64,000 nucleotides of DNA from an uncultured virus (IMG/VR IMGVR_UViG_3300006793_000020) (taxonomy: Duplodnaviria > Heunggongvirae > Uroviricota > Caudoviricetes). A program made the position numbers and the translations under genes. Positions within the stretch are counted from its first letter, which is position 1, and the number at the start of each line of letters is the position of its first letter. Shown here one piece after another: positions 32,176 through 54,155 of this stretch. The stretch lies in the IMG/VR virus record IMGVR_UViG_3300006793_000020. One strand, 5' to 3'. Below the pieces are notes generated by a model, which saw only the letters and a list, made by a program, of their open reading frames with translations, did no database searches and was not told the DNA's origin.

Positions 32176-32194
32176 TTATAAATGGAAAAGAATC

Positions 32195-32794: not shown

Positions 32795-32803
32795 GGAAAA
32801 GAC

Positions 32804-34855: not shown

Positions 34856-34884
34856 TTGACTTTTTACCGATAAATAATTATACT
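34856..34884 (+). promoter_or_regulatory. sigma70-type promoter with nested late promoter
   Basis: TTGACT (34856-61), 17 nt, TATACT (34879-84); GATAAATA at 34869-76; AGGAG RBS follows. Confidence 0.7.
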
Positions 34885-37041: not shown

Positions 37042-37969
37042 GTACTATGTATTCTATGACGAATGGTCAGGAGAAATATACAGCGTAGGAAATAAATTTA
37101 AGGACGGTGGGTACAGCGTTTTACTCACTGAGGATAATACTGCGGCTGAAATTTTGATGGGGCATCTAAATCCACGCAAGTATATTGTTAACGATACGCC
37201 AAGTGGTACGTTTATTATGGCTAAGTCGGATAGTTTACGTATCAAAGCTGAAGAAGATCAACTTAGTAAAATTGTAGAAGTACCAAATACTGTTGATAGA
37301 GAAATCAATATCATTACATATATTGAAAGCATGATGCTAGAAATTAATATTAGTAGTGATACTGTACTTAAAATGGTTGGTAGGAATGTTAACAAAAAGT
37401 TTAGCCAAGCGCATAACGAAAACAATACTACACTATATTTTTATATCGTTGCAAAGGATAACCCATCATATCTATACAAAACAATTGAGATTGACCCTAT
37501 TGATTTAATCAATGATGGTGTTGCTACGTTTGATTTATATGACCTTTCAACTAAAGTAGCACTGGGTGACATTGATGTGTTAACCCGTCGAGTATTTAAA
37601 AGTTATGGCTTGAAAAAGAAAACAACCTATGTTACACTAGACTACAACAGGCGTAAAGTTACTAAGCGTAATATGGTTAAAATTAGAGACGACAAAGATG
37701 CCGTGTTTACACTTAGTGAAGCAAACAGTGGTTGGATTGTGCGTAGTAATTTCCAAGATCCTGAAGAAGTAAAAATTTATAGTGATCTTACTTTTTATAT
37801 TGTTGGAGATTCACCACATGAACTACTGGGCAGTTTTACATTGCCAAAGACTGAACTAGGATGGGGTAGAGAAACAACTATCAAGACCAACGCAGATCTA
37901 AAAACGTCTCAAATGCTTGTTGGAGAAGCGGGCAGAAATATTACATTTAACTATGAGGAAATAAAATAA
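36989..37969 (+). CDS. Hypothetical protein (326 aa)
   Basis: Long ORF in operon; internal repeated L-x-FYIV...P...L motif. Confidence 0.75.
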   Translation: MNTEPKLISIVGEKPLPKYYVFYDEWSGEIYSVGNKFKDGGYSVLLTEDNTAAEILMGHLNPRKYIVNDTPSGTFIMAKSDSLRIKAEEDQLSKIVEVPNTVDREINIITYIESMMLEINISSDTVLKMVGRNVNKKFSQAHNENNTTLYFYIVAKDNPSYLYKTIEIDPIDLINDGVATFDLYDLSTKVALGDIDVLTRRVFKSYGLKKKTTYVTLDYNRRKVTKRNMVKIRDDKDAVFTLSEANSGWIVRSNFQDPEEVKIYSDLTFYIVGDSPHELLGSFTLPKTELGWGRETTIKTNADLKTSQMLVGEAGRNITFNYEEIK

Positions 37970-38949
37970 TGTCAAATATGGTTAGTATTAATGAGTTTGA
38001 TATAATTTACATCAGTTACGACGAACCAAATGCTGATGAAAATTATGCAGACTTGTTGGATAAATGTCCATGGGCTAAACGAAGCCATGGTGTATGGGGT
38101 AGTGATGCCGCACACAAAGCAGCAGCCGCAATGAGTGAAACAGAACGTTTTATTACCATTGATGCTGATAATATAGTAAACGATGATTTTTTTAATGTTG
38201 AGTTAGACATGGATAAAATTGAACAAAATCATGTTATTAGCTTTGCTGCAAAAAATAAAGTTAACGGATTAGTATATGGTAATGGTGGCATCAAAATGTG
38301 GCCAGTTGACGTTGTTAATCGTATGCGTACACATGAAGCGGCACCAGCAACAGACAAAAGAGCACAAGTAGACTTTTGTTGGAATATCCAATACATTCAA
38401 ATGAATAACTGGCATAGTTGGGTATATAATAATGGTAGCCCACTACAAGCCTGGCGTGCTGGATTTAGAGAAGGTGTTAAGATGGGACTAGAGAACGGTG
38501 ACGTTGTTGATCCTGCTAAAATTAAAAACATCTATCGTGAAAATTATCGTCGTTTAATGGTATGGATGACCATTGGTGAAGATGCACCCAACGGTCTTTG
38601 GGCAATTTATGGTGCACGACTTGGTTGTCATATGACAAATGTGTTACGGCATGAATGGGATTGGAAAAATGTTAGGGACTTTGATTGGTTAACAAAATAC
38701 TTTGAAGATGAACTAGCACCACAGTTTGCTGATGGTGTAGAGCTATGTCCACGTACTGGATACAGTTGGGATAAAGATAAACTAAAAGCAAAAACTATAG
38801 AACTGGGTAAAGAGTTACGTAGTACACTTGATTTAGAGATAGCAGATGTTGGTGCTGAAGGTTCACGTTTCTGGAAAACAGTTTATCGTAACCCAAGTAG
38901 ACTTGGTGCAATGGTACGTGAAGACCAAGTACAAGATACTATTGACTGA
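37969..38949 (+). CDS. Glycosyltransferase-like protein
   Basis: ISYDEPNAD, FITIDAD DxD, YGNGGIK, AWRAGFREGVKM. Confidence 0.6.
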   Translation: MSNMVSINEFDIIYISYDEPNADENYADLLDKCPWAKRSHGVWGSDAAHKAAAAMSETERFITIDADNIVNDDFFNVELDMDKIEQNHVISFAAKNKVNGLVYGNGGIKMWPVDVVNRMRTHEAAPATDKRAQVDFCWNIQYIQMNNWHSWVYNNGSPLQAWRAGFREGVKMGLENGDVVDPAKIKNIYRENYRRLMVWMTIGEDAPNGLWAIYGARLGCHMTNVLRHEWDWKNVRDFDWLTKYFEDELAPQFADGVELCPRTGYSWDKDKLKAKTIELGKELRSTLDLEIADVGAEGSRFWKTVYRNPSRLGAMVREDQVQDTID

Positions 38950-38970
38950 AGATAGAGAGTGTGTTATAAT
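38942..38970 (+). promoter_or_regulatory. Near-consensus sigma70 promoter heading the radical SAM run
   Basis: TTGACT (38942-47), 17 nt, TATAAT (38965-70) with extended TG; ATG at 38976, no RBS. Confidence 0.8.
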
Positions 38971-38975
38971 AATAT

Positions 38976-40445
38976 ATGAGCGATGACGTAGAAATTGTAA
39001 ACTATGAGCTTGATCCAGATCCGGAAACAGCAGCAGAGTTAGTAAAACCAAAACTAGATAAAATTAGCCCTACCATGTGTATGGCTAAGTGGTTGTGGAC
39101 TAGTGTTCACTTAACCAACGGAACAACTAATAGTTGTTTCCTTCCTCCTATTCACAAAATTGAAGTTGAAAATATTACAGATAACCCAAAAGGGTTACAC
39201 AATACTCCACAGAAAAAAGAACAACGGCAGATGATGCTAGACGGCGAACAGCCTGATGGGTGTAGCTACTGTTGGAATATTGAAAAGATGGATAGATCCT
39301 TTAACAGTGATAGACATTATCGCAGTAGTGAGCCTTGGGCACAAGCTGGATGGGATGATGTATTGGAAAAAGGTGCTGATGGCGACATTGAACCTCGCTT
39401 CATGGAAGTTAACTTTAACCACGCTTGTAACTTAGCATGTAGTTATTGTAGTCCACATTTAAGTAGTAAGTGGGCAGAAGATATTGAGCAGAATGGTCCT
39501 TATGATACTATTGTTCCTCATAATAGTATTGACTATTTCAAGCAAATTGGACAGTATCCTATTCCAAACCGTGAACATAATCCATATGTAGAAGCGTTTT
39601 GGGAATGGTGGCCTGAACTATACCCTAAACTTCAGAACTTCCGTATGACAGGCGGTGAGCCGCTTATGGATAAAAATACATTCCGTGTACTTGACTATGT
39701 AATTGATAACGGTCGTCCAGACCTTGAAATGGCTGTCACTACAAACGCTAGTGTACCTGATAAGTTATGGGACAAGTTTGTAGACAAAGTAAGTTTTATC
39801 AGCGAGTACAACAAACTGAAACGCTTTAGAGCATTTGTTAGTGTAGACGGTTGGGGCGATCAAGCAGAGTATATGCGGCACGGACTAGATTTTGACCGTA
39901 TGTGGAATAACGTAAATAATTATCTAACCAGAGTAGATGAAGGACTTGTTACGTTTATTGTCACATTCAACATGCTTAGTTTGCCAAGTATTAAAAAGTT
40001 ACTTGAAGGCATACTAGAACTACAGCGTATACATAATGTAACTAAAAGTAGACGAGATGCTGACGGAAACATTGTAGTGTATGGACACCACAAAGTGTTT
40101 ATTGATACACCAATGTTGCGTTATCCGCTTTGGCAGAGTTTACAACTAACACCAGAAAGCCATTGGCATTATGCAGATGAGGCACTTGAATTTATGAAAG
40201 CAAATATTGACAAGCATCGTGATAGCCGTTGGGTAGGGTTTAAACCACACCAGATTGAGCGATTTGATCGCAGTATTGAATTTATGAAACAAGGATTTGA
40301 TACTGATGAGCAACGTGAAGAAGCTGAAGAAAACTTTGTAAGATTTTTTGATGATCACGATAGACGAAGAGATACTAGTATATTAGATACCTTCCCTGAG
40401 TTTAGTGAACAATACCACGAATGGAAAGACAAATACAATGTATAA
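38976..40445 (+). CDS. Radical SAM protein with N-terminal Twitch-like domain
   Basis: CNLACSYC, TGGEP; N-terminal CMAKW...SC...CSYCW. Confidence 0.92.
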   Translation: MSDDVEIVNYELDPDPETAAELVKPKLDKISPTMCMAKWLWTSVHLTNGTTNSCFLPPIHKIEVENITDNPKGLHNTPQKKEQRQMMLDGEQPDGCSYCWNIEKMDRSFNSDRHYRSSEPWAQAGWDDVLEKGADGDIEPRFMEVNFNHACNLACSYCSPHLSSKWAEDIEQNGPYDTIVPHNSIDYFKQIGQYPIPNREHNPYVEAFWEWWPELYPKLQNFRMTGGEPLMDKNTFRVLDYVIDNGRPDLEMAVTTNASVPDKLWDKFVDKVSFISEYNKLKRFRAFVSVDGWGDQAEYMRHGLDFDRMWNNVNNYLTRVDEGLVTFIVTFNMLSLPSIKKLLEGILELQRIHNVTKSRRDADGNIVVYGHHKVFIDTPMLRYPLWQSLQLTPESHWHYADEALEFMKANIDKHRDSRWVGFKPHQIERFDRSIEFMKQGFDTDEQREEAEENFVRFFDDHDRRRDTSILDTFPEFSEQYHEWKDKYNV

Positions 40446-42126
40446 GAATATAGATTACCTAGACGAACGAGAAAATATGAAAAAAGTATACGGCTGTGAT
40501 AGCATGTGTACTGCAAAATTTCTTACAAGTACGTTGTATCTACAAAGCGGCCACACACACAGTTGTTATCATCCGCTACCACATAAAATACCACTAGAAG
40601 AAATTAAAGACAATCCAAGTGCATTGCACAATACAAAACATAAGATTGCTAGACGTAAACAAATGCTTAACGGCGAACGTCCTGATGAGTGTAATTATTG
40701 TTGGCGTGTTGAAGATATTGACGACAATCAAATTAGTGACCGTGTTATCAAAAGTAAAAACGAACTGTTACTTACACCAGATGCACATGAAATGATCTTG
40801 GAAAACGGATGGGATCATAACTATAGACCAACATACTTGGAAATTAGTTTTGGTAACGAATGTAACATGAAGTGTGCCTATTGTCATCCTAAAGCAAGTA
40901 GTGCATGGAAAAAAGAGATGGACAAGGAAGGGCTTTTCCCTGAAGCACCACACTTACAAGTACAGCACGAAAAAATCTATGCAGAGGATGATAACCCGTA
41001 TGTTGACGCTTTTTGGAAATGGTGGCCTTACTTACGTAAAACACTTAAGGTAATTCGCATTACAGGCGGCGAGCCATTACTACAACAAAACGTTTGGAAG
41101 TTTTTAAAGAAACTACAACAAACAGGCGAGTGTAGTGAAATGGTTTTGCAAATTAATACCAACTTAAATATCAAAACTAAACTAGTAGAGAGAATGTGTG
41201 ACCAGGTTAATGAGCTGTTGCACGATGAGAAAATTAAACGTTTCCAGATTTTTAGTAGTATTGAAAGTTGGGGCGATAGAGCATCATATACACGTAGTGG
41301 TTTAGACTTGGGATTGTTTGAAGCAAACATTAATGCAATTATGGACAAGATGGGTCACCATCATGTTGATGACTTTAATGGAATCCAGATTATGAACACA
41401 TATAACATTATGTGTGTAACAAGCTACATCAGCTTCCTTGAGAAAATACTGGAATGGCGCCGTAAGTTTCAGAGACCTGGTATGGAATATCCAAAGATTA
41501 TGTTTGATATTCCTCATTGTACTGAGCCTAACCATTGGACACTAGTTGGACTTCCTGACGCATTTAATGAGTATATTGACTTAACAACAGATTTTATGGA
41601 TCGATGGAAGTGGAAAGCAAACTGGCATAAGTATCCAAAAGAGGATCACAACAAACAATATCATATGTACTTTAGCGATGAAGAAGTACGTGCATGGTCT
41701 AGAGTACAAGCAATGTGGAAAACTATTTGTGACAAACGTAACCGTGTACAAACAGATGCATATCTTGAACCAAGAGAAATTGATGATGCTAGACGTAACT
41801 GGTACTTGTTTATTAAATCAACTGATGCAAGACGTAATACAGACTTCAAGGAGATTTTTCCTGAGATGGTTGAATATTATGATATGTGTGCTACACTATA
41901 TGATATTTCTGAGATGGAATATAATCGTAAATGCAAGGAAGAACTATTAAAAGATGAACCAGTTGATTTTCATTGGGATGATGATTTTGTTTGGCATCAT
42001 CCTGGACTAGCAAAGAGCTTGATTAACTATAGAAAGATTAGGAATATACCTACCAGAATGTACAGTGAAGATAATTTAGTAGGTGCATTTGGAAAATTTG
42101 ATGAAGAAGAAACCGCTGATGAATGA
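40438..42126 (+). CDS. Radical SAM protein with N-terminal Twitch-like domain
   Basis: CNMKCAYC, TGGEP; CTAKF...SC...CNYCW; start placed at ATG 40438. Confidence 0.92.
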   Translation: MYKNIDYLDERENMKKVYGCDSMCTAKFLTSTLYLQSGHTHSCYHPLPHKIPLEEIKDNPSALHNTKHKIARRKQMLNGERPDECNYCWRVEDIDDNQISDRVIKSKNELLLTPDAHEMILENGWDHNYRPTYLEISFGNECNMKCAYCHPKASSAWKKEMDKEGLFPEAPHLQVQHEKIYAEDDNPYVDAFWKWWPYLRKTLKVIRITGGEPLLQQNVWKFLKKLQQTGECSEMVLQINTNLNIKTKLVERMCDQVNELLHDEKIKRFQIFSSIESWGDRASYTRSGLDLGLFEANINAIMDKMGHHHVDDFNGIQIMNTYNIMCVTSYISFLEKILEWRRKFQRPGMEYPKIMFDIPHCTEPNHWTLVGLPDAFNEYIDLTTDFMDRWKWKANWHKYPKEDHNKQYHMYFSDEEVRAWSRVQAMWKTICDKRNRVQTDAYLEPREIDDARRNWYLFIKSTDARRNTDFKEIFPEMVEYYDMCATLYDISEMEYNRKCKEELLKDEPVDFHWDDDFVWHHPGLAKSLINYRKIRNIPTRMYSEDNLVGAFGKFDEEETADE

Positions 42127-43405
42127 AGACCATTTACTAAACGATAGTAAGTTTTTTTGTATGGCGCCTTGGGTCACTATGCATTTTTGGCCAAGTGGAC
42201 AGGCGTTTCCTTGTTGCGTAATACTTCCTGAAAGCAATAATCTTTCCGACGAATTTATGGGAAATTTAAACGACAATAGCATTGGTGAACTTTGGAACAC
42301 TGAACAAATGCGAGAGTTGCGCCGTAATATGATGGCAGATAAACCCAGCCGGGCATGTAGACGTTGCTATCAACAGGAAAAAGATGCAGATATTAGAACA
42401 CTACGTATAAGTCTAAATGAAGACTTTGGCGATATGTTTGATCGTGTTAAAGACACACATGCAGATGGATCGCATGATGACCCACGCTTTTACTACTGGG
42501 ACGTAAGATTTAATAACTTGTGTAACCTACGCTGTTTAAGTTGTGGTCCACAGTTTAGTAGTAGTTGGATTAACGATGCTAAAAAGGCATGGAACTACAA
42601 AGAGCCTGCACTATTAGAGTTACCTAAAACATTCTGGGACGATGCACTGCCTGCAATTCAGGAAGTACGCCACGCATACTTTGCTGGAGGCGAACCATTA
42701 ATTACAGCAGAGCATTATAAAATGTTAGATACTTGGTTAGAGTGGGGCAACACTGATGTAAATATTAGTTATACAACCAACTTTACTAAAACACATTTGG
42801 GTAAAAAGCGAGTGTTTGACTACTGGAATAAGTTTACAAATGTTAACGTTGGTGCCAGTTTGGATGATAATTGGGAACGTGCAGAATACTTGCGTAAAGA
42901 TACTATCTGGACAGATGTTGTAAAGAATCGGCGTGAAATGATAGCTGAGTGTCCTGATACTAGGTTCTTTATTAGTAGTACTATTAGTGCTTACAATGTA
43001 CTGCATTGGCCAGACTTTCATCGTGAATGGATTGAAGAAGGACTAGTTAGTGTTAACAGTTTAAACTTAACTATCTTAACACATCCTGAACGTTTAAGTA
43101 TACAAATCTTGCCAGAAGATTATAAAAGACAAGTAGCCAAAAAGTGGGAAAAACATATTGAATGGATTGAAGATCTACGCAAAAAACAAAACCCAGACTG
43201 GCAACATGATTCAAATAACCTACAGGGTATTATTAAGTTTATGTATGCTGACAATACCTTTGATACAAAATTTAACGAGTTTCTGTGGAACACAAAAGAA
43301 TTTGATACGATTAGAAACAATGATGCATATAAAGCATACCCAGAGTTAGAACAATTAAAAAAATATGAGATAATGCCAGATGACCCAAGATATAGAATCG
43401 CCTAA
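42119..43405 (+). CDS. Radical SAM protein with N-terminal Twitch-like domain
   Basis: CNLRCLSC, AGGEP; CMAPW...PCC...CRRCY; start placed at ATG 42119. Confidence 0.92.
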   Translation: MNEDHLLNDSKFFCMAPWVTMHFWPSGQAFPCCVILPESNNLSDEFMGNLNDNSIGELWNTEQMRELRRNMMADKPSRACRRCYQQEKDADIRTLRISLNEDFGDMFDRVKDTHADGSHDDPRFYYWDVRFNNLCNLRCLSCGPQFSSSWINDAKKAWNYKEPALLELPKTFWDDALPAIQEVRHAYFAGGEPLITAEHYKMLDTWLEWGNTDVNISYTTNFTKTHLGKKRVFDYWNKFTNVNVGASLDDNWERAEYLRKDTIWTDVVKNRREMIAECPDTRFFISSTISAYNVLHWPDFHREWIEEGLVSVNSLNLTILTHPERLSIQILPEDYKRQVAKKWEKHIEWIEDLRKKQNPDWQHDSNNLQGIIKFMYADNTFDTKFNEFLWNTKEFDTIRNNDAYKAYPELEQLKKYEIMPDDPRYRIA

Positions 43406-44675
43406 TCCACTATTAACTGACAGTAAAGTATTCTGCATGGCACCATGGATACATATGCATGTATGGCCAAATGGTAGAACTTTCCCTTGTTGTTTAGCTG
43501 AACATAATGACGGTAACGATTATGGAAATACTAATACACATACTCTTGAAGAGTTGTGGAACAGTGACCTAGCTAAAAAGCTTCGTACAAACATGCTAAA
43601 TGGTAAAGCTAGTAATGCATGTAACCGTTGTTATGAACTTGAAAACGATAGTAACGCATATACACTTCGTAAAAATATGAACAATCGTTTTGCACATCAG
43701 TTCTGGCGTACAAAAGATACACATGCGGACGGGCAATATGATGATATCAATCTTACATACATGGACTTCCGTTTTAGTAACTTGTGTAATATGAGTTGCC
43801 GTAGTTGTAGCCCAACATTTAGTACCAGTTGGTTTGATGATTTTGTTAAAGAGTTTGGCGCTGTGCCTAAAGATGTTGCAGAGCAAAAATTTATACAACT
43901 TAAAAATAAACCAGGCTTCCTAGAAGAACTACGCCCGTATTTGGATACAGTAGAAGAAGTATACTGGGCAGGTGGAGAACCACTAATAACAGACATGCAC
44001 TGGGAAATTATGAACCACTGGGTTGAAACTGGTCATGCACAAAATGTTAGTGTGTTATATACTACAAACTTTAGCCAGCTTACATATAAAAAACAACATG
44101 TATTTGATTTGTGGAAACAATTTAAGCAAGTTAAAGTAAGTGCTAGCTTAGACGCAATGGGAACACATGGTGAGTATATACGCAAAGGTACTATTTGGTC
44201 AGACATTGAAGCAAATAGACAAGCAATGCTAGATGATCCAGAACTTACACATATTGAGTTTGATTTGTGCCCTACACTTAGTTTAATGAACGTACTACAT
44301 TTCCCAGACTTTCATGAAGATTGGGTAAGAAAAGGATTTATTCCGCCAGGTGAGATAAGGTTAAATAACTTGCTGGACCCAAAGTTCTTGAGTATGCAAG
44401 CATTGCCAAATGATTACAAAATAAAAGTAACCCAACGATGGGAGGAACATCTTGCATGGTTAGACAAACAGGAAAACTTTATTCCTGATCATTGGCCTGC
44501 TAATCAGTTTGTTAGTAGCGCAGAGGGACTATTAAACTTTATGAATACAACAGACCGCACCAGTGAGTTGCCAGATACGATTAAAGAATTTGAACGTTGG
44601 GACCGTATTAGAAATGAAAATTGGCAGGAAGCACTGCCAGAATTATTGTGTATAGGAGAATATCGTGAGCAGTAA
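43380..44675 (+). CDS. Radical SAM protein with N-terminal Twitch-like domain
   Basis: CNMSCRSC, AGGEP; CMAPW...PCC...CNRCY. Confidence 0.92.
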   Translation: MTQDIESPNPLLTDSKVFCMAPWIHMHVWPNGRTFPCCLAEHNDGNDYGNTNTHTLEELWNSDLAKKLRTNMLNGKASNACNRCYELENDSNAYTLRKNMNNRFAHQFWRTKDTHADGQYDDINLTYMDFRFSNLCNMSCRSCSPTFSTSWFDDFVKEFGAVPKDVAEQKFIQLKNKPGFLEELRPYLDTVEEVYWAGGEPLITDMHWEIMNHWVETGHAQNVSVLYTTNFSQLTYKKQHVFDLWKQFKQVKVSASLDAMGTHGEYIRKGTIWSDIEANRQAMLDDPELTHIEFDLCPTLSLMNVLHFPDFHEDWVRKGFIPPGEIRLNNLLDPKFLSMQALPNDYKIKVTQRWEEHLAWLDKQENFIPDHWPANQFVSSAEGLLNFMNTTDRTSELPDTIKEFERWDRIRNENWQEALPELLCIGEYREQ

Positions 44676-45948
44676 TACATATTGTTTATACCCGTTTACT
44701 AACTTAAACAGTAACACTGAAGGCAGTGTTAAGTTGTGTTGTAGTATTAATGAAAATATCCACGCAACTGGCGGTGATGGACAAGAACTAAACTTTGGTA
44801 CTCATAGTGTTGAAGAGATTTGGAATAGTGACTACATGGTGAACGTTCGTAAACAAATGCTCAAGGGGGAAAGACCGTCAGCATGTGATGTATGTTGGAA
44901 ACTAGAAGATAGTGGTATCCAAAGCTCAAGACAAAGTGCATTTGGTGAGCTTAAAGATTGGGCTGTGCCTAAAGAATATCAAACTAGCAACCCCCCATTG
45001 CCACAGAGCTTAGAACTTCGTTTGGGAAATTTTTGTAACCTACGTTGTAATAGTTGCTGGGCACTTAGTAGTGATAGAGTTGCAGATGAAAGACGTCTTA
45101 TACAGCGTAAAGATGATAATATGCCGTTCTGGTTACGTAAAGAATGGGATCATGAGTTAAAGCTAGATGAACAAGCTAACTGGCGTTGGTGGGAAAGTGA
45201 TGAGTTTGTTAAGAGTATTAAAAAACTTGCACCCAAACTTAAACGACTATACCTAACTGGAGGCGAACCAACTCTAATCAAACGTAATATTGAAATCATG
45301 CAAATGATACTTGACAGTGGCAACACAGACTGTTATATTGCACTTACAACAAACCTAACACAGTGGAACGAGATATTTTATAATACAATGTCACGCTTTA
45401 AAAATGGCGAGATACAGATTAGTATTGATCATATTTACGATAAAAACGAATATATTAGGTACCCAACTAAATGGGAAAACATTGAAAGAAATATTTTAAA
45501 AATATACGATGCATTTCCTCAAAGTTGGAAGATCAAACATTACACAGTGTTTCAAACTTATAACTACGATGCTATACCACAAGTACTTGATTGGGTACAC
45601 AATCACCGTAGCTGGTATGATAGTAAAGAAAAGAACAGACTTTACATTTGGAGCCCAATTATGTTAGATAGTCCTAGTTATTTGGATGTCAGGATCGTAC
45701 AACCTGAGATACGTGCAAAAGCAGTTGCGGCATTAAAGTCATACGAGCCTAGTCACAATGTACCAAATATCTGGTATCAACATGGGATAGAACAAGCAAT
45801 TAAAAGACTAGAAGATAATTCACTAAGTGAAGAATATTGTGCTGAAAAACGACAGCATTTTAGAGAGTTTAGTGACACTATGGACCGTCATCGTGGCACC
45901 AAATGGTATGATACTTTCCACAATATTGCGTTTGAGGTTCTAACGTAA
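44665..45948 (+). CDS. Radical SAM protein with N-terminal Twitch-like domain
   Basis: CNLRCNSC, TGGEP; CLYPF...LCC...CDVCW; GTG start with AGGAG. Confidence 0.92.
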   Translation: MSSNTYCLYPFTNLNSNTEGSVKLCCSINENIHATGGDGQELNFGTHSVEEIWNSDYMVNVRKQMLKGERPSACDVCWKLEDSGIQSSRQSAFGELKDWAVPKEYQTSNPPLPQSLELRLGNFCNLRCNSCWALSSDRVADERRLIQRKDDNMPFWLRKEWDHELKLDEQANWRWWESDEFVKSIKKLAPKLKRLYLTGGEPTLIKRNIEIMQMILDSGNTDCYIALTTNLTQWNEIFYNTMSRFKNGEIQISIDHIYDKNEYIRYPTKWENIERNILKIYDAFPQSWKIKHYTVFQTYNYDAIPQVLDWVHNHRSWYDSKEKNRLYIWSPIMLDSPSYLDVRIVQPEIRAKAVAALKSYEPSHNVPNIWYQHGIEQAIKRLEDNSLSEEYCAEKRQHFREFSDTMDRHRGTKWYDTFHNIAFEVLT

Positions 45949-48161
45949 TGAGTCAAGAAGATCAAGGTATTGCATGGTACAGACTACAGCAGAAAAAACG
46001 AAGAGACCCGCCTACTAGGGAAGAGGGTACTTATTTAGAAGACCGCAGCACTGCTACACAGAAGATTATGGAAAAATGGAGTAAAGGACCACAAAAAGGT
46101 CTGGCTCCTGTTGAGATTGAGTATAATATCAGTCGACAAACTAAGTTATGTCTGCTTATGTGTCCGGAATGGGATCCAGGTTTTCCGCATTATGGTATTG
46201 CTAAACTTGCAGGTGTAACCAATACAGCAGGGTTTGAAACAAAGTGTTTTGACTTAAATGTAGAAGCATACAGGGCATTTTGGGACGTTTTTGGCGGAGA
46301 TGATGCCTGGGATATTCATTATGACCCTTGGGACGGCCCACGTGATTGGCACTGGATAGGCGAACAATACTGGAACGAGTTACATGAATATGTAAAGCCA
46401 ATACTTGATAAGGCAGTAGATCAAATGGTAGAGTTTGCGCCAGACTTTTTGGGTGTAAGCCTTTACTACTGTAATGAAGAGCCTACTGATTATATTATTA
46501 AAGCAATTAAAGAACGGTTACCTAACATTAAAATTATTGTAGGTGGTCCTAGTACACACTATAGTTATTTTAAGCCAAAAGACATTTATGATTATGTTGT
46601 TAACGGTGAGGGAGAACGCCCACTGTTAAACATCTTGATGCAACACGAAAAGAAACTAGAAGTTGAAGGCGAAAAATCTGACAACGGAAAAACACTAATA
46701 TTACGTCAAGCAGAAAATGAACGTGTTAGTTTAGATGAACTTCCTTATCCTGATTACAGCAACATGCCCATGGACAAATACAGTTTTCCAAATGGAGCAT
46801 TACTTGCTATTAGTAGAGGATGCATTGCTAAATGTACATTCTGTGAGGAAACACACTATTACAAATACAGACAGCGTACAAGTGTTAGTACACTGGATGA
46901 AGTAATTCATATGCATAATACATATGGAACAAATGTTTTTTACTTTGTTGACAGTTTAGTAAATGGTAATCTAAATGAGCTACGTGCCTTTGCTGAAGGT
47001 GTAATTGCCAGTGGTATAAAAATACACTGGAGTGGTTATTCCAGATGTGACGGACGCATGGATTTAGAATATATGCAAATACTTCGTGACAGTGGATGTG
47101 AAGCTCTTAACTATGGTACAGAAAGTGGTGCACAAGAAGTATTAGATGCCATGGATAAAAAAGTTACAGTGCCAGAAATGGAAGCCAACTTCCGTGATGG
47201 TAAAAAAGTTGGTATTGCTTCAATGACTAACTGGATTGTTGGCTATCCAAATGAAACATATCGTATGTTTGAAGATAGTATGACATTCTTATGGCGGCAA
47301 CGTAATCAAGGATTACTTAATATTGGTCAAGGCACAGGCTTTAGTGTTGGTGTTGATACTATTGTAGGTCAAAACTTTGATAGATTTAATTTAAAACAAT
47401 GGTATTATTATGATCACTGGATTACCAAAGACGACAAAATGAGTATCGCACACAAACTAATACGTATGAAAACGTTTAGTATGTTTACTGACTTCTTACT
47501 GAGCGAATCAGAGATTGGCCGACCTACTCGTCATAATCTACGTGAACGCCATTACACTATTGAATGGAATGATCCACTAAAGCAAATAGAAATCGAATAT
47601 CCTAATGATGATTTTGATTATGACATAATCAAGCCAGGCATAAGTAATTTTGCAGATAGTTTAGTAAACGAAGTATGGCCACTACTGCACATAATGTGGA
47701 GGACCAGAGGCGGTTATAAACTAAACTTAAAATTTAACTATGAATGGGAATTGGAAGAATGGGGTGCCAGAAATGCAGCACCATTATATGCCAACTATGA
47801 TTTTGAAATTACAGACGATGGACATTGGAAAGCTGACTTTGCTTGGGATTATAGACAAACAGATACAGATTACGAATACAATGACCATGTTTGGCAGGAC
47901 CAAGATGGTAACACCATAATAGATCCAGATACAGTTGGACCAGTGTATACAGTAATGAACTTTTTTGGTGATAACAGCAATGCTGCTACTCGTGCTAGGA
48001 AACTAGCATGGAAAGGCGATCCTAACTTTAAAGGTAAGGATCCGTGGAATGCGTTTGACGCAGAATGGTTTTGGAAAGTTAAACAAGACTTTGCAACGGC
48101 ACGTTATCACGATTATAGTTTTAAATATGACTGGCAAGGCGAAGGAAAATGGGATGAGTGA
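45948..48161 (+). CDS. Cobalamin-binding radical SAM protein (class B methyltransferase-like)
   Basis: B12-binding region (IIVGGP, NGEGE), SRGCIAKCTFC, YGTESG, IVGYPNET. Confidence 0.88.
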   Translation: MSQEDQGIAWYRLQQKKRRDPPTREEGTYLEDRSTATQKIMEKWSKGPQKGLAPVEIEYNISRQTKLCLLMCPEWDPGFPHYGIAKLAGVTNTAGFETKCFDLNVEAYRAFWDVFGGDDAWDIHYDPWDGPRDWHWIGEQYWNELHEYVKPILDKAVDQMVEFAPDFLGVSLYYCNEEPTDYIIKAIKERLPNIKIIVGGPSTHYSYFKPKDIYDYVVNGEGERPLLNILMQHEKKLEVEGEKSDNGKTLILRQAENERVSLDELPYPDYSNMPMDKYSFPNGALLAISRGCIAKCTFCEETHYYKYRQRTSVSTLDEVIHMHNTYGTNVFYFVDSLVNGNLNELRAFAEGVIASGIKIHWSGYSRCDGRMDLEYMQILRDSGCEALNYGTESGAQEVLDAMDKKVTVPEMEANFRDGKKVGIASMTNWIVGYPNETYRMFEDSMTFLWRQRNQGLLNIGQGTGFSVGVDTIVGQNFDRFNLKQWYYYDHWITKDDKMSIAHKLIRMKTFSMFTDFLLSESEIGRPTRHNLRERHYTIEWNDPLKQIEIEYPNDDFDYDIIKPGISNFADSLVNEVWPLLHIMWRTRGGYKLNLKFNYEWELEEWGARNAAPLYANYDFEITDDGHWKADFAWDYRQTDTDYEYNDHVWQDQDGNTIIDPDTVGPVYTVMNFFGDNSNAATRARKLAWKGDPNFKGKDPWNAFDAEWFWKVKQDFATARYHDYSFKYDWQGEGKWDE

Positions 48162-49161
48162 ATTAATAAGAATTGAACAAGGCGGTGAACCGTTTGTAAA
48201 CATCACTTGGCAAGTTAGTAACTTGTGTAACTTTCGTTGTACATACTGTAATGAGTCTAATTGGAACGGAAGTAATCTTAACTTAGATATTGAAGCTATC
48301 AAAGCAGGACTAACTAAACTAATTGACTATGAACTTAGTAGAGGTTATACTAGACTTAAAGTATTCTTTAGCGGCGGCGAGCCTTGTTACTGGAAGCCAC
48401 TAGTGCCTGTAATGGAACATATACTAGCAAGCGGAATGACTGAAGTCAAGTTTGCTGTTAATACCAACCTTAGTAGTAAACGAGCATGGTGGGAAAAGAA
48501 TGTACATTACTTTGATGATGTTGTTGCCAGTTACCATCCTGAATTTGTTGACAGCGACCATTACTTGGAAATTTACAAGTTTTTAAGTGACCGTGTTAAC
48601 TACTTGTGTGGGCGTATGATGATGCATGAGCCCACATGGGACGAAGTTATTGACTTTAGTAAACGAATAAAAACAGAAATGAATGAGCACAATTGGCGTA
48701 TTGAATACGTGCCAATATTTGAAGAGCTTAGTCATACAACACGCCCGTTTAATTATAAAAATCCAGAGCACAAAGAGTTTTTAGAGAAAACTAACTTAGA
48801 GCAAGATATTAAATATAATGTGCCAGCCAAAGCACTTGGTATGGGTAGTATGGAAGTGTACAGTGACGGAACCGAACAGCCTATTAATTGTAATAGATTA
48901 GTAGCAGAAAGTAAAAACTTCTTCAAGGGTTGGAAATGTTTAATACCCATGGAGAGTATCTTTATTAACTGTGAAGGACATATTGATATGGGTAGCTGTG
49001 GTGTTATGCCACGAGTAGGTAACTTGTATGATCCAGAACTAGAGTTAGACTTACCAACAAGCGTAATTTGTCCTAAGACACATTGTCATTGTGGTACAGA
49101 CATTTACATTACAAAATATAAGGATAGAAATTATGAACCATCTAATCAATTTAGCACATGA
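48154..49161 (+). CDS. Radical SAM protein with C-terminal Cys-rich (Twitch/SPASM-like) domain
   Basis: CNFRCTYC, SGGEP; C-terminal WKC...SCG...CPKTHCHC; start placed at ATG 48154. Confidence 0.9.
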   Translation: MSELIRIEQGGEPFVNITWQVSNLCNFRCTYCNESNWNGSNLNLDIEAIKAGLTKLIDYELSRGYTRLKVFFSGGEPCYWKPLVPVMEHILASGMTEVKFAVNTNLSSKRAWWEKNVHYFDDVVASYHPEFVDSDHYLEIYKFLSDRVNYLCGRMMMHEPTWDEVIDFSKRIKTEMNEHNWRIEYVPIFEELSHTTRPFNYKNPEHKEFLEKTNLEQDIKYNVPAKALGMGSMEVYSDGTEQPINCNRLVAESKNFFKGWKCLIPMESIFINCEGHIDMGSCGVMPRVGNLYDPELELDLPTSVICPKTHCHCGTDIYITKYKDRNYEPSNQFST

Positions 49162-49465
49162 ATATTTCAACGCATGGAATATTAATGATGTAGAACAACT
49201 AAAGCCATTATTTCACGAAGACATTGAGCTCACTGATTGGGACGTTAGTGTTAAGGGATTTGATCAGGTTATTAAAACCAATGATAACATCTTTAAAGGT
49301 GCACCAGGAATAAGAGCTGAAATACTTGGTATGACAAATAACGAACACACAGTCAGCGCACAGTTACGTATACATATTCCTGAGAAGGAAGAAGCAATTG
49401 ATGTAGTAGATGTTATAACATTTACTAATAACAAAGTAAGTTCTATCAGGGCATACAAGGGCTAA
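49133..49465 (+). CDS. SnoaL/NTF2-like protein
   Basis: YFNAWN...LFHEDIEL...VVDVITF...IRAY; AAGGA before ATG 49133. Confidence 0.8.
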   Translation: MNHLINLAHEYFNAWNINDVEQLKPLFHEDIELTDWDVSVKGFDQVIKTNDNIFKGAPGIRAEILGMTNNEHTVSAQLRIHIPEKEEAIDVVDVITFTNNKVSSIRAYKG

Positions 49466-49466
49466 C

Positions 49467-50687
49467 ATGGACACCAAAACATACTGCATCTTACCGTACA
49501 ATCATTTAAGTATAGACCCAACTGGACAAATTCGTCCATGTTGTAACTATAACTTCCATTCCAAGAACTATCCAGGAAAAGAAGCTGGATGGACATTCAA
49601 AAATATTATGGATTGTGAAGATGGGTTACTTGATGCAGTGCCTCATCGTGAGTTACGCAAAGATATTGAAAGTGGTAAAAAACATGACTTTTGTAATCGT
49701 TGCTGGGTAGTAGAAGATAATGGTGGCTTTAGTTATAGACAAAGTTGGAACCAATGGTTTGACACTGAAGAGCAACACAAGTTACACAATAATATTAATA
49801 TCGAATATCTAGAGCTTACACTAGGAAACAAATGTAATATTCAGTGTAGAATGTGCAATCCTTGGTCAAGCAGTATGTGGGCTGACGATATTACTAAAAA
49901 TCCCGAAGTTAATTTTTGGAGAGCAGATGTATCAAAAATTAACTTTGAATGGTATAACCATCCAAACTTTGACCGTGTATTTGAAGAGATTATTCCAACA
50001 ATAAAACACATTAATATGTTGGGTGGCGAACCACTATTTGTTCCCAAGTATTATGAACTCTTGCAACGTGTTGTTGATAGTGGGCGAGCATCAGAAGTCA
50101 GTTTACAGTTTAACACTAATATGTTAGCAGTACAAAACAAAGTATTTGACTTGTGGAAACACTTCAAAGGACTTAATATAAACATGAGTTGTGACGGTGT
50201 CAATGAAGTAAACGAATATGTTAGATGGCCTGGTAAATGGAGTAAGTGGGAACGCAACTTACAAAAAGTAATTGACTGGTCAAAGCAAATGAAACCAGGA
50301 CAGTGGACACTACAAGTACACAGTACAATGAGTAGTTTAACCTGGCTGGACTTGGCTAATTTATATGAATACACACAAACACTGGATATGGATATTAGCC
50401 TTCCCTATCTTATTCAAGTAAACCAACCTGCACACATGGACGCAATACATTTGCCTGAAGCAATCAAACAAAAAGGTTATGATGCTGCATGTAGCGTATT
50501 AAACAACAGTACAGCACCAGAATGGGAAAAAGCAAACAATCAAGCCTTGCTTGATCATGTTATGCAAAATGAACGTGATCCAGCAATGTGGGATCAATTT
50601 ATTGATGAAACAAATAGACTCGACATTTTGAGAAAACAAAGTATACTGGATGTAATACCTGAGTACGCTGAATACTGGAAAAAATAA
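49467..50687 (+). CDS. Radical SAM protein with N-terminal Twitch-like domain
   Basis: CNIQCRMC, LGGEP; CILPY...PCC...CNRCW. Confidence 0.92.
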   Translation: MDTKTYCILPYNHLSIDPTGQIRPCCNYNFHSKNYPGKEAGWTFKNIMDCEDGLLDAVPHRELRKDIESGKKHDFCNRCWVVEDNGGFSYRQSWNQWFDTEEQHKLHNNINIEYLELTLGNKCNIQCRMCNPWSSSMWADDITKNPEVNFWRADVSKINFEWYNHPNFDRVFEEIIPTIKHINMLGGEPLFVPKYYELLQRVVDSGRASEVSLQFNTNMLAVQNKVFDLWKHFKGLNINMSCDGVNEVNEYVRWPGKWSKWERNLQKVIDWSKQMKPGQWTLQVHSTMSSLTWLDLANLYEYTQTLDMDISLPYLIQVNQPAHMDAIHLPEAIKQKGYDAACSVLNNSTAPEWEKANNQALLDHVMQNERDPAMWDQFIDETNRLDILRKQSILDVIPEYAEYWKK

Positions 50688-51844
50688 TGGCAACACTGCA
50701 CCCTGACTCTATTGCAATACAGTACTTGTTACGACATGATGTTGTAGAGCTTTTTAAACAAAGTCCAAGAAAACAAATACTATTGATAGGCACGCCTTAT
50801 CATGTACCAAGCAAGCAATTTAACGATCATAATATACCATTTAATCAAATTGAGTATTTTGGAAACTTTGATAAAGAGTATGGACACTTGTTACCTGAAA
50901 TACGTTGTGGTGATATAAAAGTAGTATTCATAATGAGCGATGCATGGAACACATGTAACCGACATGAAACTCATTTAACCTATAACGGTAACTTCCTTAC
51001 ACTTGACATATACAATTTGTTATATCGTAAAGTTACTGAACTTGGTATAAAAGAACACAGTGTGTTTAGTACTCCTAGTAGTACAACTGATCTAGAGCAA
51101 CACGATGATTGGCCAGCCATTCCGTTTACTGAACCATTTAATCGATACTTTGATTTTCAAAAGTTTTCTCCGTTTACTCCCAAAAGTGGTAATTTTAAAT
51201 ATCGTTACCTTTGGTTGAACAGACGCAGTCGTGCACATCGTATATATGCATTGCATCAGGCATTTCGTTTAAAAATGATGGATAAAGCAAAATATACCTT
51301 TCACAACTTTAACGAGGTTGAGCTTGGATGGGAACATTTTAAAAGTGAACTTAATGTATTTTTAGAAGATGATGAGATTGATTTAACCTTTCTTAAATAT
51401 CAGACTGATGCAGTAGATCCACAATACCGTGTTAAGAATGATGATCAGGATATTCCAGAGCTAGTACAGCTTGGTATTACATCAGAACAATGTGCACTTG
51501 AAATAGTAAGTGAATTTAATTGCAGCAATAACAAAAGTTTCTTGACAGAGAAAGTGAGCCGTAGTATAGTAATGGGTAACCCTTTTATTATTCTAGGAGA
51601 TGCTAACTCACTAAGTGAGTTACATAGGATGGGATTTAAAACATTTGATAAATGGATTGATGAATCCTATGATAGTATACTAAACGCAAAGGATAGAATG
51701 GATGCTGGACTGTTAGCAGCCAGGGAATTTACTCTAGAGTATTATGATGATGAGTTAAACGATGTACTTGAATACAACTACAATCATTATTTTGGTGGGT
51801 ATAAAAGGCAACAGATTGCTCTCGCACAAGGAATTTTTAAATGA
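50687..51844 (+). CDS. Hypothetical, GT10-like glycosyltransferase motif
   Basis: FLTEK...GNPFIILG...GFKTFDKWIDESYD resembles the fucosyltransferase-type TEK motif. Confidence 0.45.
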   Translation: MATLHPDSIAIQYLLRHDVVELFKQSPRKQILLIGTPYHVPSKQFNDHNIPFNQIEYFGNFDKEYGHLLPEIRCGDIKVVFIMSDAWNTCNRHETHLTYNGNFLTLDIYNLLYRKVTELGIKEHSVFSTPSSTTDLEQHDDWPAIPFTEPFNRYFDFQKFSPFTPKSGNFKYRYLWLNRRSRAHRIYALHQAFRLKMMDKAKYTFHNFNEVELGWEHFKSELNVFLEDDEIDLTFLKYQTDAVDPQYRVKNDDQDIPELVQLGITSEQCALEIVSEFNCSNNKSFLTEKVSRSIVMGNPFIILGDANSLSELHRMGFKTFDKWIDESYDSILNAKDRMDAGLLAAREFTLEYYDDELNDVLEYNYNHYFGGYKRQQIALAQGIFK

Positions 51845-53505
51845 CCGTATATGATGCACAGTATGTTATAGATCATTGGACTGATATGGATATGTGGGAA
51901 GACCGCATATGGGTTAATCATAAGTGGAAGCTATTCTTTGTGCCAATTTGGCGCAATGCCAATACGTCATTTATGTATCAAGCTAAAGAGTGGGGATACT
52001 CGTTAGAAAAACATGATACTTCCACAATGACGGGTTACCGAGGATTTACGTTTATACGACATCCTAAAAATCGGTTTAATGGTCAAATGGAGCGAGCAGT
52101 TGAAAATAATAAAGATACATCAGTGGACTACTGGATTGACACACTGAGACCAAATAGTTTTAATGAGACTGATATGCATTTCACTCGTCAAGAACATTTT
52201 TTATTCAATCATGATATTGAATGGTATATTGATTTAGATAACCTTAAATGGATACACGGAGATCCACATGATGATGTAGTAAATCATATTAACAGTATTA
52301 TTAGTCATTATGGAAGTTCAATAGCAGAAAATAGATCTGACAAGAAATACACTGATCTTAGTCCTGAAGATATACGTGTAGTACAAAAATATTACTACAA
52401 TGATATTGAGCTTTATCATCGTGCTATTGGTAATCATAAGTTTGATGTTGGTATCGTGGGCACAGGTAATATTGGGAGTGCATTAGAAACAATATTACAA
52501 AATAACGGTATAAGAACATGCAGTTATGATACACATAAAATTTCTGACACATATAGCATGGTAGCTGAAGCAGATACTATTTGGATTTGTGTTGACACTC
52601 CCACAAAAAATTGGGGCAATAGTCTTGAAGATGTGCCAAGCGATTATGATTATACTAATTTAAGATCTGCACTTGATTTATTTGCAGTGCCTGATAAGAC
52701 TATTATTATTGGTTGTACAGTTTCTCCCGGCACAATACGTAAACTTAGTAAAGAGTATCCAAATTGTAATTTATACTATTGCCCATTTTTAATAAGTCAG
52801 GGAAATGTACTTGCTGGATTGCGACAACCAGACTGTTGGTTCCTGGGTCATAATCCAGGAAATAGTATGCAATTAAATCAGCTAAAGGAAAAAATTAAAC
52901 GGTTTAGTCCAAGTCCAATTTATTCAGGTACTTGGGAAGAAGCTGAATTGGCAAAAGTAATGTATAACAGTTGGATCATACAAAAAATTAACTTTGCTAA
53001 CTGGGTCTCAGACATTACTGACAGATTGGCGCCTAATACTAATGCAGATCGTATAATGACTTGGCTTAAAAAGTGTGATAACTTAATCACTAGTCCAGCA
53101 TATATGACTCCAGGTTGGGGCGATGGTGGACCTTGTCATCCACGGGATAATTTAATGATGAGTTGGCTAACGCAACAACTTGAATTACCATATGATCCAG
53201 CTATGCATAATCATAATGTAAGATTACAACAAGCAACACTGCTTGCACAAAAGGCAGTAAATACAGGTCTACCAGTAATTATACTGGGCAAAAGCTACAA
53301 GCCTGGTGTAGATAGCACAGCAGGCAGTTATGGATTAATAGTAGCACAACTCATACAACAACTTGGCGGCGAGGTATATTTTGAAGATCATGATGTACCG
53401 GGAGATTACTGTTATATATTAGCACATGCTGATTGGTATGGACATACACCAAGTGAACAAAGTAGGACAATAACTATATGGAAAAACAATTTAGAGAAAC
53501 ATTAG
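51841..53505 (+). CDS. Fusion of sulfotransferase-like domain and UDP-glucose/GDP-mannose dehydrogenase family domain
   Basis: N-half FVPIWRNANTS, FIRHPKNR, HFTRQ; C-half GIVGTGNIG, ICVDTP, EAELAK, GGPCHPRD, GKSYKP. Confidence 0.8.
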   Translation: MTVYDAQYVIDHWTDMDMWEDRIWVNHKWKLFFVPIWRNANTSFMYQAKEWGYSLEKHDTSTMTGYRGFTFIRHPKNRFNGQMERAVENNKDTSVDYWIDTLRPNSFNETDMHFTRQEHFLFNHDIEWYIDLDNLKWIHGDPHDDVVNHINSIISHYGSSIAENRSDKKYTDLSPEDIRVVQKYYYNDIELYHRAIGNHKFDVGIVGTGNIGSALETILQNNGIRTCSYDTHKISDTYSMVAEADTIWICVDTPTKNWGNSLEDVPSDYDYTNLRSALDLFAVPDKTIIIGCTVSPGTIRKLSKEYPNCNLYYCPFLISQGNVLAGLRQPDCWFLGHNPGNSMQLNQLKEKIKRFSPSPIYSGTWEEAELAKVMYNSWIIQKINFANWVSDITDRLAPNTNADRIMTWLKKCDNLITSPAYMTPGWGDGGPCHPRDNLMMSWLTQQLELPYDPAMHNHNVRLQQATLLAQKAVNTGLPVIILGKSYKPGVDSTAGSYGLIVAQLIQQLGGEVYFEDHDVPGDYCYILAHADWYGHTPSEQSRTITIWKNNLEKH

Positions 53506-54155
53506 GTGCTATTGACTGGGGACCAGCATATTATATAAACCCAGTTGGCTATCTATTTGAAAGTACAGATCCAACTATTGGTTGGTGGGATACTGCGACT
53601 AGACACATGCCAGAGCTTGATAAATCAGCTGACATACTTGATGTTGGTACATGGTTTGGCATTATGCCAAGAGTACTAAAAGAGATGGGATATACAAATG
53701 TTGAGTGTACTGAATGTGCGGCACACAATACTGGTGTACGAGATAAGTTAACAGCGTTACATGAACTGTTTGATATTCAACCATATGAACTAGAAGTATT
53801 TCCTGGCAAAGAATTAACTTTACCCAAACAGTATGATTTAATACTGATACTACACACTAACATGCACTGGAAAATACATGACCTTTATTGCTTAACAAGA
53901 ACTCCAGAACAAACTAAATTAACTAAAGAATGGCAAATTGCTAAAGGAGAAGGCACACATACGTTTTTTGTGCCGTGGAATTTATCTGAATGGCAAACAT
54001 TTATTACCAGTATTAAGAAGTATCTAAAACCAGGTGGGCAGTGTATTATACAACCACATCCTTGGCCATACGATGACCAACCAGAAGTTTTAGAATTTTT
54101 GCAACCTTATATACTTGAAAGTAGCATGGAGCAAGCTACTTTGTGTATAAAATAG
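53478..54155 (+). CDS. Class I SAM-dependent methyltransferase
   Basis: ILDVGTWFG, QYDLI, LKPGG. Confidence 0.8.
   Translation: MEKQFRETLGAIDWGPAYYINPVGYLFESTDPTIGWWDTATRHMPELDKSADILDVGTWFGIMPRVLKEMGYTNVECTECAAHNTGVRDKLTALHELFDIQPYELEVFPGKELTLPKQYDLILILHTNMHWKIHDLYCLTRTPEQTKLTKEWQIAKGEGTHTFFVPWNLSEWQTFITSIKKYLKPGGQCIIQPHPWPYDDQPEVLEFLQPYILESSMEQATLCIK

Follow-up and report, generated by a model that had tools for sequence, protein, structure and literature searches.

Eight genes encoding radical S-adenosylmethionine (SAM) proteins are arrayed at positions 38976-50687 on the plus strand of a 64,000-nucleotide stretch of DNA (the window) from an uncultured virus, IMG/VR record IMGVR_UViG_3300006793_000020, and in six of the encoded proteins a Twitch-type domain precedes the radical SAM core instead of following it. 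This permuted architecture is real, yet it is already curated as the NCBIfam family NF033640 (N_Twi_rSAM, "twitch domain-containing radical SAM protein"), with no named function. The preferred reading of the array is radical tailoring of a phage-made sugar or glycan; a probability of roughly 0.6 is assigned to a carbohydrate substrate, whereas the figure for any particular reaction is much lower. The region is probably the radical-chemistry core of a soluble gene block that builds and tailors sugars. The new elements of this analysis are the sequence and structure test against BtrN, the coupling of residue 38 to the core motif, a near-constant 335-residue partner, fused modules among the relatives, and a block free of membrane proteins. 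Identification of the substrate would provide a function for thousands of genes and could reveal a new virus-made sugar modification, with consequences for the recognition of phage particles.

The permuted Twitch domain

All six proteins match NF033640 at 256-377 bits, and the alignments run from model positions 1-2 to 394-398. As the curated cut-off is 170 bits, the pattern shared by the six is not a product of chance. Among the other two radical SAM proteins, which are named here, like all proteins, by a start coordinate of their open reading frame (ORF), the 48049 protein reaches 35.4 bits and the 45948 protein does not match the model. The permuted architecture is not new because NF033640 curates the same one: its N-terminal four-cysteine domain, core and tail are no different, and what distinguishes this phage from the family at large is that it holds six deeply diverged members in one block. 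An earlier note on this DNA, made from the letters alone, had proposed an expanded, permuted radical SAM family without an assigned function. The family itself stands, with all six members above the cut-off, but its novelty does not, as it is already catalogued, very large and also bacterial. The statement on function holds in that the NCBIfam name is generic and that literature searches, judged by title or by the start of the abstract, returned no paper on NF033640 or N_Twi_rSAM; a search combining radical SAM, jumbo phage and glycosyltransferase likewise returned nothing relevant.

In the numbering of the 43380 protein, the N-terminal set shared by the six consists of C19, G32, C37, C81 and C84 (Cx12Gx4C...CxxC), and the alignment confirms that the core cysteines C136, C140 and C143 follow the four N-terminal cysteines in every case. 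The cysteine domain spans approximately residues 15-100, the radical SAM core begins at approximately residue 123, and a helical C-terminal part of approximately 130 residues follows the core and ends in D-x2-R...PE. The residues G198, G199 and E200, which form the GGE SAM-binding motif, and the tail residues D408 and R411 are invariant in the six, and the D-x2-R-x8-PE tail described in the earlier note is present in all of them, although the 44665 protein has HN in place of PE. The Pfam SPASM model aligns with the N-terminus of four proteins (42119, residues 26-96, E 2.6e-11; 43380, residues 19-85; 44665, residues 7-78; 49467, residues 7-80). The same model finds no match in the proteins at 38976 and 40405, even though these share the aligned cysteines. 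The auxiliary-cluster cysteines form one set of four conserved residues, with no second CX2CX5CX3C set of the kind found in SPASM domains; judged from this set, the N-terminal domain is expected to carry one auxiliary cluster, not two. The six paralogues share 21-41% identity, and the 42119 and 43380 proteins are 41% identical.

Comparison with solved structures identifies the N-terminal domain as a Twitch domain of the BtrN type. A profile built from 94 N-terminal domains and compared with all PDB chain sequences yields a convincing match only to BtrN (residues 163-246, E 2.5e-7), with the four cluster cysteines in register, and the best PDB match of the full-length profile is also the Twitch domain of BtrN (query positions 9-82 on BtrN 184-259, E 6.5e-9). 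An AlphaFold2 model of the N-terminal domain alone has a predicted local distance difference test (pLDDT) score of 95.9. Foldseek ranks BtrN (4m7s) first for this model (E 0.052, TMq 0.58), and the rest of its top ten are also SPASM/twitch enzymes; VIA-align likewise ranks BtrN 4m7s first, with a Z score of 4.4 and a root-mean-square deviation of 3.5 Å over 83 of 105 residues, the next match having a Z score of 2.3. The structural and sequence results thus agree. The earlier note had called the domain Twitch-like and had proposed profile searches and structure prediction of the domain order, and both place the Twitch domain before the core with BtrN as the best match, in line with NF033640 and the four Pfam SPASM matches.

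BtrN, the archetypal Twitch radical SAM enzyme, is the 2-deoxy-scyllo-inosamine dehydrogenase of butirosin biosynthesis (PDB 4M7S/4M7T), and to our knowledge the Twitch domain is C-terminal to the core in all characterised members. The auxiliary cluster of BtrN is described as ligated by four cysteines, with a proposed role in electron transfer. The phage proteins resemble BtrN in that their Twitch domain is homologous and their radical SAM core falls into the same broad group, and the two proteins of one subtype (subtype A, see below) additionally share with it a C-F/Y pair after the hairpin and the aromatic residue in CxxxCxYC. They differ in that the domain is N-terminal, with an identity of only ~20-22% between the domains, and in that they possess an extra helical C-terminus of ~130 residues with the D-x2-R...PE tail, so that they are not BtrN orthologues.

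The AlphaFold2 model of the whole 43380 protein has a pLDDT of 92.7. The structural neighbours of its core are BlsE (Z 11.2), CteB (11.0), anSME (10.8), SkfB (9.8), SuiB (9.8), MoaA and DesII (9.2), and none of the solved structures compared is close to it. Foldseek of the whole model returns weak radical SAM matches only (best E 4.5e-4, TM ~0.3), as expected if the domain order is permuted. Anaerobic sulfatase maturase (AslB), a name that some sources give to homologues, was considered for these proteins and rejected, as the proteins lack the second SPASM cluster motif and no sulfatase gene is found in the neighbourhood.

The eight CxxxCxxC ORFs are interrupted only by one SnoaL_2 gene, and with the chosen starts the spacing within the array is -44 to +1 bases, with a 26-base gap before the first gene; the earlier note had reported both this composition and the overlapping or abutting genes. 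Pfam Radical_SAM matches all eight proteins at E ≤ 0.01, and five reach the gathering score. All genes of the array lie on the plus strand. The first two encode subtype A proteins (C-F after the hairpin): 38976-40445 (CNLACSYC; NF033640 339.5 bits; Pfam Radical_SAM) and 40438-42126, open from a GTG at 40405, with a C-terminal extension of ~80 residues (CNMKCAYC; 256.0 bits). Three genes for subtype B proteins (CC) follow at 42119-43405, open from a GTG at 42083 (CNLRCLSC; 353.6 bits), 43380-44675 (CNMSCRSC; 377.1 bits) and 44665-45948 (CNLRCNSC; 300.2 bits; Pfam Radical_SAM). Next come the gene for a cobalamin-binding radical SAM protein of the class B type with 737 residues (45948-48161, CIAKCTFC; Pfam B12-binding and Radical_SAM), the gene for a 335-residue radical SAM protein with a C-terminal Cys-rich domain (48154-49161, open from 48049, CNFRCTYC), and the gene for a small SnoaL_2 (NTF2-like) protein (49133-49465, ORF open from 49091; PF12680, E 5e-12). 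The array is completed by a further subtype B gene at 49467-50687 (CNIQCRMC; 306.0 bits). As had been noticed from the sequence, the aromatic residue before the third core cysteine is replaced in four proteins, by Ser in those at 42083, 43380 and 44665 and by Met in that at 49467; the other four have Tyr or Phe.

The two proteins outside NF033640 have different domain arrangements. In the 45948 protein, the B12-binding domain (PF02310, residues 154-228, 38.3 bits with a cut-off of 32.1) precedes the radical SAM core (PF04055, residues 288-448, 52 bits, above the cut-off), which is the class B cobalamin order. The protein shares both domains with class B radical SAM methyltransferases and differs from them by ~150 extra N-terminal and ~290 extra C-terminal residues. 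Its best NCBIfam matches are BchE, PhpK and other B12 radical SAM families, and it falls far below the cut-off of every named family of this kind (among them BchE, PhpK and HpnJ), BchE being the best at 110.7 bits against 481.35. The 48154 protein matches Pfam Radical_SAM below the cut-off and STM4011 weakly. Across 19 homologues its residues C25, C29 and C32 and also C262, C282, C306 and C311 are invariant, and C313 is nearly always present; the C-terminal set is predicted from these residues to form an auxiliary-cluster-like domain in the usual position.

Relatives, gene order and subtypes

Megablast of the 11.7-kb region against 50,697 phage records, a set from which near-identical records may be absent, gives no match. 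The family is rare in isolated phages: tblastn of the 43380 protein against the same records identifies four, at 22-25% identity. A single locus of Vibrio phage K566 contains four N_Twi-like ORFs, and the locus fetched from Ralstonia phage RsoM2USA contains one. Near its N_Twi genes, Vibrio phage K566 also carries genes annotated as a PagP-like lipid A acylation protein and a nicotinamide phosphoribosyltransferase (21993-22442 and 23320-24879). Since cultured phages with small versions of the array exist, the question of function is testable. In a profile search at E ≤ 1e-30, the family comprises 7,997 representatives of 50%-identity clusters, and it is common among uncultured viruses, with a relative encoded in 357 IMG/VR stretches. 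The best 80 of these stretches, which form 79 loci, were compared as viral loci; they were fetched through homologues of the 43380 protein with 10 kb on each side, and the counts are lower bounds.

At least three full-length copies (3-7) are present in 74 of the 79 viral loci. The most constant partner of the array is the 335-residue radical SAM protein, which occurs in 73 loci; the B12 radical SAM protein occurs in 42 (34 at ≥ 50% identity), the glycosyltransferase-like proteins in 36-37 and SnoaL_2 in 8. The gene order of the window recurs in eight other loci, one of which matches the query protein at 100% identity and probably stems from the same phage. The commonest layout elsewhere consists of two copies related to 42119 and 43380, followed by homologues of 44665 and 49467. 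In a tree of the 419 full-length copies from 112 loci and the window, each paralogue of the window falls in its own clade (FastTree support 57 to 100). The phylogeny and synteny comparison across related phages that the earlier note had suggested thus gives six separate clades and an order kept in the eight loci. The nearest record is a 46-kb fragment with five of the copies, and a T4-type portal is encoded in four of the five longest virus records. One of the virus records (G002) is a complete 518,643-base genome with terminal repeats and a T4-type portal, in which 16 N_Twi genes above the cut-off are distributed over several clusters; genes for a ferredoxin, an Fe/Mn superoxide dismutase and a sigma-70 factor are neighbours of one of its arrays.

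Bacterial copies are grouped as well, in Chitinophagales, Bacteriovoracaceae and Acidobacteriota, with at least three copies in 12 of 35 loci; some short contigs assigned to bacterial metagenome-assembled genomes (MAGs) that carry N_Twi genes may be phage. Four MAG contigs from Chitinophagales/Chryseobacterium (L021, L023, L016 and L027) each have a cluster of approximately six to eight radical SAM genes with an N-terminal SPASM domain, together with UbiA prenyltransferase, carbamoyltransferase, amine oxidase, asparagine synthase and methyltransferase genes, a content that resembles a natural-product or glycolipid pathway. Of the family's 150 best representatives, 30 have at least 700 residues, and approximately 26 of these hold two or three complete N_Twi modules, a hint that the paralogues may work together, possibly as physical assemblies. 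A predicted heterodimer of the 43380 and 42119 proteins scored 0.00 against a mark of 0.32, which counts neither for nor against binding.

All seven cysteines are kept in 416 of the 419 copies, with the N-domain before the core, and the cluster cysteines are thus under strong selection. No copy deviates at G198, G199, N230, S256 or R268, and 418 copies have R69 and E200. A fifth cysteine, Cys38, adjacent to C37, is present in 328 copies, 327 of which have a non-aromatic residue before the third core cysteine. Conversely, a Tyr precedes the third core cysteine in 75 copies, and residue 38 is Tyr, Phe or His in 74 of these. The coupling follows the tree and is a subtype marker, not independent evidence of a contact. 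Of the six proteins in the window, those at 38976 and 40438 belong to the aromatic subtype and the other four to the "CC" subtype. Both subtypes occur in 50 of the 80 viral loci (with the window counted), and no locus holds the aromatic subtype only. When BtrN is aligned, it resembles the aromatic subtype, with a Phe after the second cluster cysteine and a motif ending in Tyr-Cys.

Sugar genes and the proposed chemistry

The array is flanked on both sides by genes of sugar metabolism, which lie on the plus strand unless stated otherwise. Upstream, two paralogous genes (35252-36160 and 36157-37041; hhalign probability 99.6%, E 5e-25) encode candidate GT8-like glycosyltransferases, each with a homologue in 36 of the 79 viral loci. 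The first has an invariant DxD (D117/D119), and the profile of the second matches glycogenin-1 (GT8) chains at E 1.3e-5 over only about the first 105 positions (3-107). Neither protein has a Pfam match, and the 35252 protein has no PHROG match either. A protein without a match in Pfam, PHROGs or NCBIfam follows (36989-37969; homologue in 13 of the 79 loci), and then a possible GT2-like glycosyltransferase (37969-38949; homologue in 37 of the 79). The latter is a lead taken from its nearest ESM Atlas cluster, which may be its own cluster and is automatically named "Glycosyltransferase 2-like domain-containing protein" (score 0.99). The 35252 and 37969 profiles give nothing meaningful against the PDB.

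Downstream, a further protein without a family match (50687-51844; homologue in 15 of the 79 loci) is followed by a nucleotide-sugar dehydrogenase (51841-53505; N-terminal and central Pfam UDPG_MGDP_dh domains; PHROG 9148, UDP-glucose dehydrogenase), which scores 92 bits with TIGR03026, below the cut-off of 189.8. This dehydrogenase also possesses an N-terminal extension of ~200-230 residues without a family match in Pfam, PHROGs or NCBIfam. The next genes encode a candidate methyltransferase (53478-54155, Pfam Methyltransf_23), a candidate C-methyltransferase of the NDP-hexose type (54168-55361, Pfam Methyltransf_13/14/23), a candidate Stf0-like sulfotransferase (55330-56043, Pfam Sulphotransf over a short stretch), an SDR nucleotide-sugar epimerase/reductase resembling GDP-fucose synthase (56040-56930, Pfam Epimerase; NF047922 206 bits with a cut-off of 500) and a sugar aminotransferase of the DegT/PseC/LegC type (58830-59894; PF01041, E 4e-63). 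Downstream genes on the opposite strand encode another SDR and a cupin. In the ORFs between 32 and 64 kb, no membrane segment is predicted except one weak window in an SDR; the block therefore encodes no flippase, polymerase or polyprenyl-phosphate transferase, and its product would be made in the cytoplasm by soluble proteins.

Similar genes surround the relatives. The viral loci have GT7, Anp1-like, UDP-glucose dehydrogenase, DegT and epimerase genes nearby, and the bacterial loci have GT2, GT1, YdjC, a DXD-type glycosyltransferase, an SDR epimerase, a carbamoyltransferase, a UbiA prenyltransferase and an asparagine synthase. Glycan tailoring is a plausible reading that rests on the presence, in this phage and its relatives alike, of genes for glycosyltransferase-like and nucleotide-sugar enzymes near the arrays; of the substrates that the earlier note had offered (a phage-made glycan, a virion protein or a DNA base), the glycan gains partial support from this context. 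A sugar substrate is also favoured because the core matches include the sugar-acting BlsE (Z 11.2) and DesII (Z 9.2).

In the proposed mechanism, the core cluster would cleave SAM to generate a 5'-deoxyadenosyl radical, which would abstract hydrogen from a C-H bond in a sugar unit, and the Cys-ligated N-terminal cluster would accept an electron, as proposed for BtrN, so that a carbinol would be converted to a ketone overall. In the copies with the extra adjacent cysteine, a hydrogen atom might be returned from the opposite face, resulting in epimerisation. Each of the six diverged paralogues may act on its own position or its own sugar, and the cobalamin-type enzyme would methylate a carbon. 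The product would be an unusual, heavily edited cytoplasmic sugar or glycan, which might be attached to a virion protein. The conserved order of the six old paralogues, together with a C-methylase-type enzyme, would be compatible with several non-redundant steps in the making of one product.

A division of labour between the subtypes is conjectured by analogy with NeoN and HygY, the twitch radical SAM sugar epimerases of aminoglycosides, in which the twitch domain is C-terminal. Reportedly, mutation of one cysteine in HygY unmasks dehydrogenase activity. The split between copies with and without Cys38 parallels these enzymes by description. In NeoN, Cys249 is described as returning the hydrogen atom (PMC10991966). 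Extended to the array, the conjecture would make subtype A dehydrogenases and subtype B epimerases in which Cys38 returns the hydrogen, with the B12 methylase and the small radical SAM protein editing an assembled glycan on a virion protein; as a complete scheme, this is an unlikely one. We know of no virus for which radical editing of a glycoprotein after its assembly has been described.

The best-surviving alternative is that a protein or peptide is modified instead, for example by cross-links, epimerised residues or oxidised side chains, possibly in the 3793-residue virion protein of the window. Such modification is the usual job of SPASM/twitch radical SAM enzymes. The core has the SPASM maturases CteB, anSME, SkfB and SuiB among its neighbours (Z 9.8-11.0), Pfam SPASM matches four of the six N-domains, the weak NCBIfam matches of these domains are to SPASM peptide maturases, and baseplate and virion genes lie shortly upstream of the array. 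However, the domain of the phage proteins is N-terminal with four cysteines (CxxC, not CX2CX5CX3C), and it is nearest to BtrN, which acts on an aminocyclitol. Pfam finds no RRE or PqqD-type domain in the nine array proteins at E ≤ 0.01, which leaves room for an unrecognised peptide-binding element, and a precursor peptide gene has no room in the array, where gaps are at most 1 base inside and 26 bases in front. Additionally, the arrays lie among sugar genes in both phages and bacteria. Modification of a protein is accordingly considered unlikely.

A substrate in DNA is more doubtful still. The edited sugar would here be placed on DNA bases or nucleotides as a protection against host nucleases, and T4-like phages are known to glycosylate their DNA. 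The proteins of the block are all soluble, and the nucleotide-acting enzymes viperin and QueE are among the weak core matches. Early expression, which would suit this role, would be allowed by a sigma-70-like site at 38942-38970 (+) (TTGACT, a 17-nucleotide spacer with TG, and TATAAT; 11 of 12 positions, a consensus match only). This site sits in the 26-base gap before the array and ends 5 bases before the ATG at 38976, so that it would give a nearly leaderless transcript. Sites of this type are not enriched in the region (89 found, 78.7 expected). On the other side, Pfam and PHROGs identify no base-modifying enzyme in the 64-kb window, the bacterial homologues stand with polysaccharide-type genes (GT2, GT1, YdjC, UbiA), and the block runs in the direction of the structural genes, behind T4-type late motifs. 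The exact sequence TATAAATA, which we take to be the T4 late-promoter consensus, occurs at 3172-3179 (-), 10112-10119 (+), 16874-16881 (+), 32168-32175 (+) and 61916-61923 (-), in each case just upstream of a gene start; four of these sites are intergenic, and the one at 32168 straddles the stop codon of the 3793-residue ORF. The motif is not enriched in the window (5 found, 10.6 expected), and only its placement is notable. A gene for a gp55-like late sigma factor is found at 9150-10028 (-) with PHROGs.

There is likewise little to recommend the idea that the block feeds unusual nucleotide sugars to the envelope machinery of the host and alters its surface polysaccharide, for example against superinfection: the dehydrogenase, epimerases and aminotransferase needed for nucleotide sugars are present and export would require host components in the absence of a phage membrane component, but the three soluble glycosyltransferase-like genes before the array suggest that the phage itself assembles the glycan, and the block is joined to virion genes.

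Several points weigh against tailoring of a sugar or glycan by the array. The link to sugars is one of guilt by association, and the co-occurrence counts are biased toward such arrays by the retrieval of the loci through homologues of the 43380 protein. None of the flanking sugar enzymes reaches the cut-off of an equivalog-level NCBIfam model, and thus the exact sugars cannot be named; additionally, no carrier, flippase, polymerase or acceptor is identified in the block, and the searchable literature contains no biochemical datum for any member of the family. The core neighbours are nearly tied, within about two Z units, and include the peptide maturases CteB, anSME, SkfB and SuiB. In absolute terms, the N-domain has only low structural scores (E 0.052; Z 4.4), although these are to be expected when a small cluster-binding domain is modelled in the absence of the cluster. 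Finally, the timing of expression is ambiguous, with the T4-type late motifs upstream (16874 and 32168) on the one hand and the sigma-70-like site directly before the array on the other.

Phage setting and occurrence

The window comes from an uncultured marine jumbo phage, a T4-like myovirus. Its T4-type portal (PF07230, E 2e-84) is 52-55% identical to those of jumbo phages such as Sinorhizobium phage Phosso, Pseudomonas phage PA5oct and Agrobacterium phage Atu_ph07, and Pfam also identifies a gp25-type baseplate wedge protein and gp46/47-like nuclease subunits. PHROGs add the late sigma factor, a baseplate hub, a wedge subunit of 1180 residues and a virion structural protein of 3793 residues. 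From 10139 to 59894, nearly all genes are on the plus strand and tightly packed, and the radical SAM array has the same direction as the baseplate and virion genes and lies downstream of them. The 3793-residue protein is encoded by a single ORF at 20791-32172 (+) (PHROG 10938, "virion structural protein", E 1e-235); it has no Pfam match, positions 20000-33000 contain no tandem DNA repeats, and the protein is a candidate fibre or acceptor protein. A second sigma-70-like site, with 10 of 12 positions, is present at 34856-34884 before the gene at 34911. No tRNA gene was found in the window. A gene for a SegE-type GIY-YIG homing endonuclease (4688-5128, -; PF19835, E 1e-35) adjoins a 660-base stretch (4028-4687) without an ORF of at least 100 residues.

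Near-identical DNA is present in 19 sequencing runs that contain at least half of the sampled words. The 20 entries for holders of this DNA come from 13 studies and are nearly all labelled as marine or seawater; three of them are possibly the source sample. Because near-identical DNA occurs in marine runs of 13 studies, the chemistry of the array is probably common in the sea. In one metatranscriptome run (X20), short contigs lie in 16 of 30 bins; DNA may be present in an RNA library, so this does not prove that the region is transcribed. In three other metagenomes, contigs span the region at ~98-99% identity. The insertions and deletions listed within the radical SAM genes of these three metagenomes are compensating pairs a few bases apart, except for one single-base deletion at low depth, and the compensating pairs fit genes that are intact and under selection.

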